From NCBI GenBank assembly GCA_049852185.1, contig CP187540.1: a stretch of 64,000 nucleotides of DNA. One strand, 5' to 3'. The notes below the pieces were generated by a model. It saw only the letters and a list, made by a program, of their open reading frames with translations, had not been told where the DNA came from and did no database searches. The translations under genes and the position numbers were made by a program. Shown here one piece after another: positions 4,434 to 56,170 of this stretch (position 1 is its first letter; every line of letters starts with the position of its first letter). Source of the stretch: Methanocaldococcus sp. 28A (GTDB lineage Archaea; AGJL01; Methanococci; Methanococcales; Methanocaldococcaceae).

Positions 4434-5378
4434 TTAAAACCTTCTAATATTTGGATTAACTATCGTTCTCTCTATATTCCAAACTTCATTTAGCACATTT
4501 GAAGACATGGCAGTTCTTAAAAAAGGAACTTTGAAACTAACAGATACATGTGCAAATGATGAGTTGTTTCCAAATATTACTGGATAAAGCCCTTTGTCCA
4601 TAATGTAATTTATATAATAATACATCTCAGTTATTGTTCCCATCTCATAAGGGTAAATTTTAACAAAATCGCCTTCTTCATAAATGCTATCTGTGCATAG
4701 GAATCCATCAAATTCTACAGGCTCTTCAACCTCTAAATAGTCAATTTGAGATAAATCCTTATCTTTAACAATCTCTTTTTTAGAGCTAAGTCCTAATAAA
4801 ATATCTAAATCTTCATCTTCTTTGATTTCATCTATTAAATCTCTAATCTTTGGAATCTCATTAAATATATCTTTGCAAATATATGAACCATTAATATTTA
4901 TAATGTCATAATCTTCTGATAAAATATCTGTAAGTTTTAAATACAAATTAACAATATCCTCTATAGATTCTGCCATAACTATTGGAATTAATTCATTGTT
5001 ATTTTTATCAACCAATATTCCAGAGGCAACTATAGGTAAGTCAGTTGTTAAAGCCCCTCCTAAGAATTTAAACAAAGGAATATCTAAGCTGTTTGAAGCT
5101 GCTCTTGCTACGCTAATAGAGATACCCATTGCTACAGTAGGATTATCAACTGATGTTTCACAAATTAATGTATCGATGAAATCAATATCTGTTGCTGGAT
5201 AACCTATAAGTTCTGGGGCTATGACATTTTCAACATCCGCTATTGCTTCCTCTGGATTATTCACTTCAATGATGTCATAGCCAATAGATATGTTTGTCAT
5301 TGTTGTAATCATTACCTTAATTTTAGCTCCTTTAAAAACTTCTTTTGCACTTATTTTTTCAATAATAACATTTGTCAA
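4434..5378 (-). CDS. Truncated, degenerate enolase-like protein
   Basis: Enolase N-domain signature (IAPELIG, ISISVARAA, IPLFKFLGG); only 314 aa; occupies the usual enolase slot after rpoK. Confidence 0.7.
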   Translation of the reverse strand: MTNVIIEKISAKEVFKGAKIKVMITTMTNISIGYDIIEVNNPEEAIADVENVIAPELIGYPATDIDFIDTLICETSVDNPTVAMGISISVARAASNSLDIPLFKFLGGALTTDLPIVASGILVDKNNNELIPIVMAESIEDIVNLYLKLTDILSEDYDIININGSYICKDIFNEIPKIRDLIDEIKEDEDLDILLGLSSKKEIVKDKDLSQIDYLEVEEPVEFDGFLCTDSIYEEGDFVKIYPYEMGTITEMYYYINYIMDKGLYPVIFGNNSSFAHVSVSFKVPFLRTAMSSNVLNEVWNIERTIVNPNIRRF

Positions 5379-5412
5379 TTACATCCACCTCAATTAAAAA
5401 ATAATTATAATT

Positions 5413-5555
5413 TTACGCTTTTGCAGGTCTTATTGGCTTTAATGGCATAGAAGCAAAGCTTCTATTGCTATACTTCAGAGCAGGGTTCACTACATTCAGC
5501 CCCACTTTTTAGTTAAAAGAGTTTATACCTTCATAGGTCTTATCGGCTTTAATGG
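5413..5555. repeat. 77-bp two-hairpin insert (5446-5522) between imperfect 33-bp direct repeats of the rpoK 3' end
   Basis: 5413-5445 vs 5523-5555 match at 26/33; insert begins CATAGAAGC-AAA-GCTTCTATTG-CT-ATACT. Confidence 0.8.
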
Positions 5556-5696
5556 AACTTTTCCTTGTTTAATTTCTTCATATGCTATTTTTAATGAAGT
5601 ATCACATTTTATTTCTATTGTTGCATAAGCCCCATTAGATATTTGCAAACTCCTCGCCCCCAATATTCTCGCAATCTCAAATTTTGTTAATTTCAA
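5523..5696 (-). CDS. rpoK: DNA-directed RNA polymerase subunit K (Rpo6), 57 aa
   Basis: Missed by the ORF track. TTG start after an AGGTGA RBS; MKLTKFEIARILGARSLQIS...IAYEEIKQGKVPLKPIRPMKV*. Confidence 0.95.
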   Translation of the reverse strand: MKLTKFEIARILGARSLQISNGAYATIEIKCDTSLKIAYEEIKQGKVPLKPIRPMKV

Positions 5697-5724
5697 TCTC
5701 TCACCTCTAAAAATAATATAATAT

Positions 5725-5801
5725 TAGAACTTTCGCAGAAATAAATGTTGTTTATACGGAATATGGATGCTCTATCAATATATAAAAATGCGAAAGACGT
5801 A
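5725..5801. repeat. Degenerate palindromic repeat, family B
   Basis: TAGAACTTTCGCA ... TGCGAAAGACGTA inverted ends (10/13); similar ends at 59111/59351. Confidence 0.55.
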
Positions 5802-5812
5802 TAAAAATTAAA

Positions 5813-8465: not shown

Positions 8466-9026
8466 TTATTTCTCTTGCACCTGTGTTTCTTCTGAGACTA
8501 ATCCAATGATTTTTGCTCTTTCTGGATGGTTTTCATCGTTGAATGGGGAGTTTTTAGCATAGCTGATTTTGTCTTCTTCTTCAACAGTTACCAGGTAGCT
8601 TGGAGCAGTAACAACTCTACCATTAACTGCTATATGTCCATGAATTATTAACTGTCTTGCCTGTCTTGGAGTTCTTGCCAATCCTTTTCTAAATACAAGT
8701 GTTTGTAATCTTCTTTCTAAGACGTCCTCAACAGTTAATGATAAGACATCATCAAGTGTTGGGTTTTCAATTCTTAAAATACCATATTTTTTCAATACGT
8801 TAAATAACTGAACAGCCTCTTTAGCTCCCTGCTCTGTTCTATCGCCAATTAACCTTCTTGCTTGTCTTCTGTATTTTCTTAAAATTGTCTCCGCTTTCCA
8901 AACTTCTCTTTTTCTTCTTAAACCATACTTTCTACATAATTCTTTTTCTCTTTCAATTCTCTCTTTAATCCATGGATGGTTTGGTGTTTCATATGTCTTT
9001 TTAAATCTTCTCCTTGGATCTCCCAT
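8466..9026 (-). CDS. rps4: 30S ribosomal protein S4
   Basis: [17 protein letters not shown]. Confidence 0.98.
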
Positions 9027-39025: not shown

Positions 39026-40048
39026 GAGGTTGTCGAAAAATATTAAACTAATTGATAGTAGATAATACGAAATATGAAGCAGGAAGAAAATAAGAAAAGG
39101 AGAGAGAAAAAGAAAAGTTCCAAGAAGCGGGAGGGATATTGGAAAGCTTACGACCTTAGATATAAGAAATACGACATAGTGGAGAGATATACATTTATTT
39201 TACGTATTATAAATAAGTTAAATCACCCCTCGATAGAAAGACGAAGGGTAGGTCGAGCTCTAGCTATATCCCATAATGAATATATGGCTGTTCAAATATT
39301 AAAACATATCTACACACTTAGTTTGAGAGACTTAGAGACCATATCGAATATCCTACCAGTAAAGCATTCAAACGAATAGATTATACCTCTTTGTCAGCCT
39401 TACTTACCTTTACGTATGTAATTATAGACAATTTACTGAAACAGCCCACCAATAAAATATATATCGCTGACTCCACGGGTGTTTCCATAAATAGATTATA
39501 TATTGAATGTATTTATCGAGGAAAACGGACTAAACGACGAGTGTTTGATAAATTGCATATTTTAGCATGCTATTATCCTAACTATGGCTATATTCCAGTA
39601 GTTGCTGCCCGTTGGGGCACTAATTATAGTTCCGATAGTGCAAACTTATTAGAAATGCTTAAACAAATCGATTTTTTAGATATTGAATATCTATTGGCTG
39701 ATAGTGGATACGATTGCTGTGAACTGTTCGAATACTCACTAAATCACAACATCTCCCCCATAGTTAAAACTAAAGAGTTTAAATGGGATTATAAAACCAA
39801 TAAGGTTAGAAAACGAATCAAAGGTATGTTTAATCAAAATTTATATAGATACCGTGGAGTCGTGGAATCCATTTTTGGTGGGCTGGAAACTAAAAACCGT
39901 CTAAAATTAAACGATAGATTGCTAAATATTAGACGAAACAGCACTATCGCTGTTGCAATAGTACATAATAATATTAATATTAATGAGATTATTCGGTATT
40001 AATACATAATACTTCATGCTCTTCCTAATTCAATTTTTCGACAACCTC
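39026..40048 (+). mobile_element. IS5/IS4-type insertion sequence, ~1023 bp
   Basis: Perfect 16-bp terminal inverted repeats GAGGTTGTCGAAAAAT / ATTTTTCGACAACCTC enclosing a DDE transposase. Confidence 0.9.
39074..40002 (+). pseudogene. DDE transposase split into two frames (39074-39379 and 39391-40002)
   Basis: IADSTG, KLH, LADSGYD, YRYRGVVESIFG; frame change near 39355. Confidence 0.8.
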
Positions 40049-54735: not shown

Positions 54736-54893
54736 TTATTTAATTAACACGTCTTTATACTTAAATAGTAATTCAATTCCATAGGACTCCGTCCTATTGG
54801 GATACTCGGGATGCACTACCTCGCTTACGCTCGGTAGTGCCTCTTTGCTGTTATTTAATTAACACGTCTTTATACTTAAATAGTAATTCAATT
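54736..54893. repeat. 72-bp GC-rich two-hairpin insert (54779-54850) between perfect 43-bp direct repeats
   Basis: TTATTTAATTAACACGTCTTTATACTTAAATAGTAATTCAATT at 54736-54778 and 54851-54893. Confidence 0.92.
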
Positions 54894-56170
54894 ATAGCTC
54901 TTATATCTTTTCCCTGCATCTTTGCTTCATTTAAATATATATTATACAATTGAGGAGTTAATGGTCTCGGCATAGATTTCCACATTTCAGCATGAATCAA
55001 TAAATCAAAACATCTTGCTTCTGCTTCACTCAATCCAAGTTTTTTATATTCACCTTCATGAATCTTATAAAGTAAATTTTCTTCCTTTGGCATAGATAAA
55101 ACTAAATTACACAGCTCTGTTGTAGGAATTGGCTCAGCAATGGATACAAAAACGTCATCGAGTTCAGCATCTACAATGAAATCTTTAGTTAATAGATAAT
55201 CCATCTCTGTCTCTGTTGGATATGCAACTATAAAGCTTCCTGCAACTTTAACTCCACAGTCCTTTGCTAATTTTATTGCATCTAAATTTTTTTCCCTATT
55301 AGTTCCTTTTTTCATATCTTTTAAAATTTTATTACTTCCACTTTCAATTCCATAAAACACCCATCCAATTGTGTAATTCTTTATAGCCTCTAATATATCC
55401 TCATCAACATAATCAACTCTCATATCTGGAACTGATAAATTGTTTTTACCAACAATCTCAGATATCTTTTCCAAAAGTTCAAAAAACTTATTTCTATTTA
55501 CTGATTTTTTGAAGCCATATAAACTTCCAGTTCCTCCACTTATTGCTATTCTTTTTGCTCCATATCTTTTGAATGCCTTAACTTCTTCAACAACATCCTC
55601 AACATCTCTACTCCTAATATTCTTTCCAAAAAACTTTGGAACTTGACAAAATGTGCAATTTCCTAAACATCCTCTGTGCGTTTCAATATAAACATTAGCC
55701 CCCCTAACTGATTGTTGCCCTATGTCTTTTGGTATCAATGGGAGAGGATGATTTAGCTCAGGTTTTTCTTTTGGGTAATTTATTACAATCTCTTCTCCAT
55801 CTCTATAAGCTAAGCCCTCCTTATCTCCTTCAATAATTTTTGGTGTTGTTATCTCTCCCTCTCCAACTATAACTCCATCTACATTTAGTTCATTTAAAAT
55901 AATCTCTGGATAAGCTGAAACACATCCAGCAACATAAACTTTGGTTTTATTTTTTCTTACTTTTTTTATAAAATCTATTGTTTCTCTAATCCTTTTATCC
56001 AATATATGCAAAGTTGAATATAGGCTAAATATAACAACATCTGACTTTAAAAATAATGTTTTATCTATTTTTCTAACTAAATAAACACTATAACCCATAT
56101 TTTTTAAAATTCCGCCAATAAGCATAGAGCCATAGGTATAAACATCTGGACTGTAAATTGTGATTTTCAT
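54851..56170 (-). CDS. Cobalamin-dependent radical SAM methyltransferase (MJ0865 family; probable MCR glutamine C-methyltransferase)
   Basis: B12-binding N-domain (GEGE), ETHRGCLGNCTFC, GIESGS. Confidence 0.75.
   Translation of the reverse strand: MKITIYSPDVYTYGSMLIGGILKNMGYSVYLVRKIDKTLFLKSDVVIFSLYSTLHILDKRIRETIDFIKKVRKNKTKVYVAGCVSAYPEIILNELNVDGVIVGEGEITTPKIIEGDKEGLAYRDGEEIVINYPKEKPELNHPLPLIPKDIGQQSVRGANVYIETHRGCLGNCTFCQVPKFFGKNIRSRDVEDVVEEVKAFKRYGAKRIAISGGTGSLYGFKKSVNRNKFFELLEKISEIVGKNNLSVPDMRVDYVDEDILEAIKNYTIGWVFYGIESGSNKILKDMKKGTNREKNLDAIKLAKDCGVKVAGSFIVAYPTETEMDYLLTKDFIVDAELDDVFVSIAEPIPTTELCNLVLSMPKEENLLYKIHEGEYKKLGLSEAEARCFDLLIHAEMWKSMPRPLTPQLYNIYLNEAKMQGKDIRAIIELLFKYKDVLIK

Follow-up and report, generated by a model that had tools for sequence, protein, structure and literature searches.

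Short palindromic repetitive elements termed MJRE1–3 have been described in Methanocaldococcus jannaschii (Suyama, Lathe and Bork, FEBS Lett 2005; mentioned in PMC2229807 and PMC2996958). The hairpin repeats analyzed here are most likely of this type, the match being one of description and not of sequence. The MJRE elements are reportedly 141 in number and fall into three groups of low identity, with some located inside genes. Both kinds of element come from the same genus and are short palindromic repeats that occur in tens to more than 100 copies, are mostly extragenic and diverged, and are sometimes fused to reading frames. There are 22 copies of the hairpin repeat in the chromosome analyzed here, plus one chance match inside a gene. 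By crude ORF calls all 22 are outside open reading frames or at their very ends, and none is wholly inside a called gene. At four of the 22 the stop codon of a gene is the element's own TAG, i.e. a coding fusion without loss of the gene, and one of these was checked against the empty site in a sister genome (G011). The searchable papers, which do not include the original MJRE article, contain no statement that MJRE-type elements carry target duplications of 17–63 nt.

The window is a stretch of 64,000 nt from Methanocaldococcus sp. 28A (assembly GCA_049852185.1, contig CP187540.1), and its source is an archaeal chromosome of 1.556 Mb with 30% G+C and 86% coding sequence. The translated rpoK sequence displays the Pfam RNA_pol_Rpb6 domain at residues 3–48 (E-value = 1.4e-9), and this conserved domain ends before the duplicated tail. 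A preliminary description of the window reported a direct repeat of the rpoK tail downstream of the gene, and this is borne out. The repeat is 34 nt with 27 of 34 positions identical (26 of 33 over the 33 nt originally counted), and the insert between the two copies is 76–77 nt (5446–5521 or 5522, with one T ambiguous). As described earlier, the seven differences are all transitions, with no transversion, and TAA on the gene strand ends both copies. From the displaced to the in-gene tail the changes are A>G, G>A, C>T, A>G, A>G, C>T and G>A. The ribosome-binding region of the enolase-like gene comes directly after the displaced copy; at empty sites it comes directly after the single rpoK stop codon.

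Table 1. Features of the rpoK and 54.8-kb loci, in window positions
Feature	Positions	Strand	Remarks
Gene series		-	rpoD, L18e, L13, S9, rpoN, tRNA-Pro, rpoK, enolase-like gene
Enolase-like gene	4434..5378	-	downstream of rpoK
Displaced rpoK-tail copy	5412..5445	-	would read PLKPIRPAKA-stop; untranslated target duplication, rpoK frame not kept
Inserted hairpin element	5446..5521	+	type B subfamily, decayed
Hairpin 1 of insert	5445-5468		ATAGAAGC-AAA-GCTTCTAT, bulged T5466, outer G-C/C-G pairs
Linker of insert			TATACTTCAGAGC, after hairpin 1
Hairpin 2 of insert	5483-5502		weak
Tail of insert			CACTTTTTAGTTAAAAGAG
In-gene copy of duplicated target	5522..5555	-	last 10 rpoK codons, TAA and 1 ambiguous base
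rpoK (RNA polymerase subunit K, Rpb6 family)	5523..5696	-	ORF, 57 aa, intact, ends PLKPIRPMKV-stop
Left copy of 43-nt target duplication	54736..54778		displaced last 14 codons and stop of radical-SAM gene
Sister copy of the element	54779..54850	+	type A subfamily, 72 nt, intact two-hairpin element
Right copy of 43-nt duplication	54851..54893		real radical-SAM gene 3′ end
Radical-SAM gene	54851-56170	-

The two tails had been interpreted as alternative 3′ ends of rpoK, which does not hold. Readthrough cannot reach the displaced tail, which is in another frame 77 nt downstream of rpoK, with several stop codons before it. PVKA is encoded by both tails of the sister genome G011. Therefore the PMKV and PAKA endings of the host arose by ordinary point changes, i.e. 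two transitions in the in-gene tail (V>M and A>V) and four in the displaced tail. Both host tails are thus local derivatives of one ancestral tail with nothing imported, and the second tail is a leftover of a target duplication, which is unused and does not constitute an alternative gene end. Transitions account for 916 of 1429 differences (64%) between the host (G000) and G011 and for 1643 of 2463 (67%) between G000 and G015, and with this background seven transitions out of seven have a chance of about 0.04–0.06. The mismatches in 12 repeat pairs of the host genome are 26 transitions and 23 transversions, or 19 to 8 without two poorly aligned pairs. With respect to other DNA, a metagenome contig covers positions 5409–5569, and one RNA-library contig of a relative, “organism B”, replaces 5414–5535 with 178 different nucleotides. 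The host organism itself found no match in public runs (best word share 0.17), and the four runs that were aligned yielded relatives' contigs alone.

The gap between tRNA-Pro and rpoK (5712–5803) contains an extra A+T-rich insert of about 83–90 nt in the host genome and G011. It is flanked by the inverted words CGTCTTTCGCA and TGCGAAAGTTC and is absent from G015, G008, G006, G010, G001, G007 and the metagenome contigs. The word GGACTTTCGCA from this insert occurs 94 times in the chromosome vs about 0.2 expected, which makes this a second, MITE-like repeat family.

The insert between the rpoK tails belongs to a Methanocaldococcus repeat family, of which it is a decayed member. It opens with CATAGAAGC-AAA-GCTTCTAT-T-GC-TATACT, and hairpin 1 folds with the bulged T and 3-nt loop that had been proposed. 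The second hairpin, already considered the weaker one, has a DNA fold z of -2.6 to -2.7, vs -3.8 to -4.5 for the 54.8-kb copy. The frame said to be common to the two inserts is found as CATAGAAGCAAAGCTTCTATTGCTATACT at 5446–5474 and again at 54780–54806, and both inserts do belong to one element family. Two matches to the hairpin-1 frame are present in the window vs 0.00 expected from 100 shuffles. An identical orientation relative to the gene was also claimed. In both window copies the hairpin-1 end does face the displaced copy, but a shared orientation fails genome-wide. Compared with co-directional flanking genes, as given by crude ORF calls, ten copies are sense and ten antisense, which favors an element acting as DNA over a strand-specific RNA.

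The distribution of the family was assessed with the hairpin-1 pattern ATAG-N5-17-CTAT-T-G-NN-ATAC, with the reversed pattern as control. Across 17 genomes of the taxonomic family the counts are 0–51 (reversed-pattern controls 0–1) and 15 of the 17 are positive; the extremes are G013 and G003 with none and G010 with 51. In a collection of 185,579 species a strict hairpin-1 pattern matches 38 stretches, all in records labelled Methanocaldococcus, Methanocaldococcaceae or Methanococci, and the named ones are Methanocaldococcus or Methanocaldococcaceae. By these matches the repeat appears restricted to Methanocaldococcus. Viral contigs gave no match to hairpin 1, and no Rfam family reached the gathering score (best E-value 1.5, far below threshold).

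Several types of module are present. Type A consists of hairpin 1, GCATTGCC..GGCAATGC and CTCTTA, with about 13 near-full copies in 20 nhmmer hits. Type B, to which the rpoK copy belongs, displays a GC..GC outer pair and the hairpin-2 consensus GGGGCT-TCACTACGTTC-AGCCCC, and type C has a longer hairpin 1; there are also mosaic clusters of modules. Among the 16 other genomes of the genus, 8 carry the intact type-B hairpin-2 consensus (GGGGCTTCACTNCNTTCAGCCCC), compared with none of 23 sister-family genomes. No copy within one mismatch of it is present in the host genome, thus both host type-B copies are decayed. Over 36 copies from 8 genomes the type-B hairpin keeps its 11-nt loop almost unchanged. 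Genome G006 has a composite of several hairpin modules of about 250 nt (L106–L109) in at least four copies of 95–98% identity, which indicates a recent amplification as judged from the copies themselves, and this genome shows no Y1, DDE_Tnp_1 or RVT_1 match. A clear flank repeat, at boundaries chosen in the analysis, is found at one of seven evaluable copies of the composite.

The preliminary description held that covariation implies selection on the structure. The hairpins are indeed kept by compensatory changes. The outer pair of hairpin 1 in 49 instances is CC..GG in 35, GC..GC in 10 and other in 4; the swap is real but separates two subfamilies, and it may be a single event. All 49 instances have the foot (C/G)CATAG...CTAT-T-G(G/C), as the search pattern dictates. 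In a shuffle test of the hairpin-1 inner stem, 40 of 49 are fully paired (null mean 35.3, null maximum 39), a marginal result since most stems share GGGC/GCCC. The type-A alignment of 18 copies, where hairpin 1 of most rows is fixed by the search pattern and uninformative, displays pairing in 92.8% of cells vs 30–50% with the partners slid, and in hairpin 2 both sides change in 9 of 12 pairs. The covariation score is 0.271 vs 0.117 for shuffles and was reached in 0 of 500.

Copies in the host genome have flank repeats of 21–48 nt. Of the 38 strict-pattern loci, 36 have enough flank for evaluation, and 20 of these score above the maximum of 50 shuffles, with lengths of 17–63 nt; two of the 20 are in CRISPR-repeat contexts. 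Well-preserved duplications measure 31, 35, 36, 41, 41, 43, 44, 46, 48 and 51 nt. The left repeat meets the CCATAG foot of hairpin 1 directly or within 0–6 nt, and in one subfamily the other element end is precise as well (...CTCTTAGCTG or ...CTCTTTGCTG). The duplicated flanks include gene 3′ ends, gene starts with ribosome-binding sites (the 25.7-kb site, 650401, L092, L082 and L056), a tRNA 3′ end (L075) and CRISPR repeats (L063 and L068), and gene starts are duplicated as often as gene ends. TTA is found within the first 5 nt of the outer repeat boundary in about 9 of 24 cases, which is suggestive at most of a target motif. Empty sites hold the target once, e.g. the rpoK site in G015 and G007 and the 54.8-kb site in G011, G008 and G006, as well as other sites.

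The 54.8-kb copy at the radical-SAM gene is flanked by a perfect repeat (43/43), yet the identity with its nearest paralogue is only about 85–90%. The same situation applies more widely, in that copies within one genome are diverged from each other while some flank repeats are perfect, and therefore gene conversion, a lost donor or an outside donor is needed. At L065 and L094 the repeat reaches into the element's own 3′ end, a pattern that appears to be gene conversion (copy correction), and at the 648.7-kb site of the sister genome two right-copy bases have been transferred to the left copy. Copy correction of this kind fits the presence of perfect repeats around insertions whose paralogue is about 85–90% identical. 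In G015 the 54.8-kb site has another element subtype with an 8-nt offset; from this comparison the site was clearly hit twice, by different subtypes. Nearby filler DNA was considered as the source of the 54.8-kb tail TTTGCTG, which matches neighboring words, and was dropped. The ending CTCTTAGCTG is also found in the related copies L080 and contig C1 1383884, and therefore the tail belongs to the element.

Hairpin modules are also found at CRISPR arrays. Long-stem hairpin-1 modules adjoin the presumed trailer end of two arrays, where the stop codon of a neighboring gene is the hairpin TAG, and two hairpin-1 modules are positioned between two repeats of a 3-repeat mini-array (CRISPR-associated modules are at contig C1 184657–184911, 744261–744954 and 847599–848361). 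One MAG has the hairpin joined to a CRISPR repeat at an identical position in three loci, L063, L068 and L078. The CRISPR period in the host is about 73 nt with a 28-nt repeat core. A Cas1-type origin, prompted by the modules at the two arrays and those between repeats at 184.6 kb, is disfavored by the variable length of the duplication. In casposon/Cas1 integration the duplication is fixed (about 14–15 nt or the repeat length), unlike that of the element, which varies over 31–51 nt when well preserved.

The history of the rpoK site was followed with a tree of 2.3 kb of flanking DNA, with 15 genomes scored for occupancy. The site is filled in G000, G011, G006 and G008, partly deleted in G010 and reduced to a remnant in G001, all in one clade of eight genomes (SH-aLRT 92). 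It is empty in G015 and G007, which are inside the clade, and in all seven genomes outside it. The repeat boundaries, orientation and subfamily are identical in five filled genomes. In addition, the third position of codon K55 is G in the in-gene copies and A in the displaced copies, a difference common to G000, G011, G006 and G008. Therefore one old insertion with clean excision is the simplest history: the element was probably gained once in the ancestor of the clade and then excised between the repeats. A clean, precise loss is shown independently, by genome comparison, at the 25.7-kb site, which is filled in the sister genome G011 and in G015 and cleanly empty in the host. An alternative is that several lineages acquired the insert separately, the 3′ end of rpoK being a favored target at which every hit produced the same 33-nt duplication. 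Close pairs do differ in occupancy (G008 filled and G007 empty; G000 and G011 filled and G015 empty), in G006 the copy carries another variant of hairpin 2 and, adjoining the repeat, a tail that is unrelated, and the 54.8-kb site offers a precedent for a double hit. We nevertheless consider independent hits unlikely, as they would have to reproduce the same boundaries, orientation, subfamily and K55 difference, and as one gain with two easy losses requires fewer events than four gains, precise loss being documented elsewhere.

Two further features were seen at the rpoK site of relatives. The G011 element (L002) differs from that of the host at about 11–12 of 36 positions in hairpin 2, with an identical hairpin 1 and with flanks that differ by 4–6%; this appears to be a local burst of change or conversion from another copy. 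In G010 (L005) and G008 (L003) the element in the rpoK–enolase spacer holds a nested block of small hairpins, which resembles the right end of TnpB-only insertion sequences, e.g. contig C1 632127–632426 of the host.

The preliminary description suggested that the element may swap or diversify protein C-termini. This is correct to the extent that an element has changed a C-terminus elsewhere: at contig C1 38082–38108 a gene ends ...VIMRA-stop on the element TAG, compared with ...VIMRRI-stop at the empty G011 site and ...MRKI-stop in the host displaced copy. Thus the family can, on this comparison, rewrite a C-terminus, but no such rewriting is found at rpoK. A cassette system that exchanges gene ends, either similar to diversity-generating retroelements or by programmed recombination, and that provides rpoK with two usable ends, is very improbable and largely refuted. 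The open 10-codon frame with TAA in both copies, the replacement of RRI-stop by RA-stop, the four gene stops supplied by element TAG and the displaced-type base at K55 in the empty G007 site, which is what excision would install if it left the 3′ part of the displaced copy, are compatible with it. Against these are the out-of-frame position of the second tail behind several stops and the PVKA sequence of both G011 tails, and the flanks that are duplicated comprise gene starts, a tRNA 3′ end or CRISPR repeats just as often. The diverged repeat of a gene 3′ end next to a hairpin does resemble a diversity-generating retroelement. However, retrohoming of that type, raised earlier as a possibility, is contradicted by mismatches that are not adenine-specific and match the background spectrum and by the absence of RVT_1 (reverse transcriptase) from all 17 genomes; the repeat is moreover only 33 nt and the targets are many and unrelated.

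The hairpins could instead be kept as RNA, i.e. as a 3′-UTR stabilizer, a terminator or a protein-binding site of the rpoK message, with the duplication being incidental. Compensatory changes and the nearly invariant type-B loop agree with this, as do the second hairpins, which on the gene-sense strand display tandem G-A/A-G mismatches and GAA-type loops. In a relative, one RNA-library contig spans enolase, the insert and rpoK, which is not proof of a single transcript. This reading is nonetheless quite improbable, given the lack of orientation bias with respect to transcription, a hairpin 2 of the rpoK copy that is decayed in the host and destroyed in G011, a site that is empty in 9 of 15 genomes without other change, and the absence of Rfam matches. 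Duplication of a gene or tRNA 3′ end is a hallmark of integrase-mediated integration, and the insert could be the remnant of a site-specific integrative element (attL/attR) at the rpoK 3′ end that lost its interior. The duplicated tRNA 3′ end at L075 is in agreement, yet a unit of 72–77 nt with precise ends at dozens of unrelated targets, with locus-specific repeats at each and with gene starts duplicated as often as gene ends, is not expected of such a remnant, and no integrase is found among the neighboring window ORFs; we give this reading hardly any credence.

Compared with other mobile sequences, the element shares with REP/BIME sequences and their RAYT (TnpA-REP) the G+C-rich imperfect palindromes with a bulge near the foot, the mosaic clusters alternating in orientation and the intergenic location. 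To our knowledge long target duplications are not a REP feature. In one account the foot of REP hairpins is a conserved GTAG or CGTC tag (PMC3733652), unlike the ATAG/CTAT foot of the element, and no GTAG or CGTC was seen in 49 instances. As in IS200/IS605 and PATE derivatives there are hairpins with an extrahelical T in a subterminal position, and the ends are set by orientation and are not inverted. IS200/IS605 and PATE, however, insert without target duplication and need TnpA-Y1, whereas the element has long duplications and a hairpin 1 unlike the ends of the resident IS. Members of the IS4 family, IS1549 and IS1634, reportedly generate long, variable direct repeats. We know of no other prokaryotic precedent for long, variable target duplications, but these are autonomous DDE insertion sequences with inverted-repeat ends, and 10 of 17 genomes, some of them rich in the element, lack DDE_Tnp_1. 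A classical DDE-mobilized MITE is also different, because the 72-nt unit starts with CCATAG and ends with CTCTTAGCTG or CTCTTTGCTG, which are not inverted, and its duplications of 17–63 nt are neither short nor fixed. The variable long duplications, the one precise junction and the lack of orientation bias recall SINE-type non-LTR retroposition (target-primed reverse transcription), yet there is no RVT_1 in the 17 genomes, both element ends are kept, and shortened copies are internal deletions and not 5′ truncations.

With regard to enzymes, 15 of the 17 genomes have hairpins and only 3 have Y1_Tnp, and DDE_Tnp_1 is present in 7 of 17 and missing from the element-rich G006, G016 and G012; neither transposase tracks the element. 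A Y1 transposase as mobilizer was rejected on this distribution, and the single one of the host belongs to an IS with other hairpins at its ends, which read CACCGCCCTTTAGGGCGGTG and CTCCTCCCTTTAGGGCGGAG, unlike hairpin 1. TnpB right ends were also considered as a source of modules. Solo copies exist but are not co-located with hairpin-1 copies in the host, where the right-end fragments of TnpB make up a repeat family of their own. A single IS200/IS605 element combines tnpA with tnpB (contig C1 829441–829958); in it 317 nt of the tnpB 3′ region are duplicated internally in tandem, and the zinc-ribbon domain is matched twice with identical score. Contig C2 (10,393 nt) displays a TnpB-like segment at 729–817, 4625–4713 and 8521–8609, with a spacing of 3896 nt; it resembles about 2.7 tandem copies of a 3.9-kb unit, and is possibly a small plasmid assembled as a concatemer. 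Window positions 39454–39963 (+) are one of 23 DDE_Tnp_1 transposase matches in the host genome, compared with 0–5 in each relative.

As a whole the locus is, with high probability, best explained as a decayed non-autonomous mobile hairpin repeat acting at the DNA level, whose target was duplicated when it inserted at rpoK. The repeat, composed of G+C-rich hairpin modules, would have entered the last codons of rpoK in the ancestor of the eight-species clade, joining the hairpin-1 foot precisely to the target and duplicating 33–34 nt. The rpoK gene would have stayed intact because the duplicated stretch includes the stop codon. The two tail copies would since have drifted by ordinary transition-biased point changes, partly homogenized by gene conversion, and would serve as substrates for precise excision, after which the gene can retain the 3′ portion of the displaced copy. 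The observed features comprise membership in the family, long duplications of the target, empty sites with a single copy, a conserved structure and the lack of the usual enzymes. The insertion step itself may have consisted of two breaks staggered by the length of the duplication followed by fill-in synthesis. A putative trans-acting protein that recognizes the hairpin foot and makes this staggered cut has, in our estimation, somewhat less than an even chance. The main alternative to a staggered cut is enzyme-free replication template switching at hairpins, which is possible but rather doubtful.

Taken alone, the rpoK insert is unremarkable, one more copy from a repeat family that is already known, and it leaves the essential rpoK gene unharmed. 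The interest lies in long variable target duplications without a matching enzyme in 17 genomes. These duplications explain how a repeat can occupy the ends of genes in so densely coding a genome (86%), and also explain the perfect repeats around old insertions, the clean losses between sister species and the small changes in C-termini. We tentatively propose, as a possibility still on the doubtful side, that the hairpin modules may be a distinct class of archaeal mobile DNA, i.e. units of about 70 nt with precise, non-inverted ends that would be inserted at breaks staggered by about 30–50 nt by a putative host or element protein which is not a reverse transcriptase, Y1 or DDE_Tnp_1. If this is true, the long duplication allows modules to insert harmlessly within the ends of essential genes, tRNAs and CRISPR repeats, and later drives precise excision, copy correction and the occasional rewriting of a protein terminus. 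The insertion machinery, once identified, would add a new mechanism to archaeal mobile DNA.
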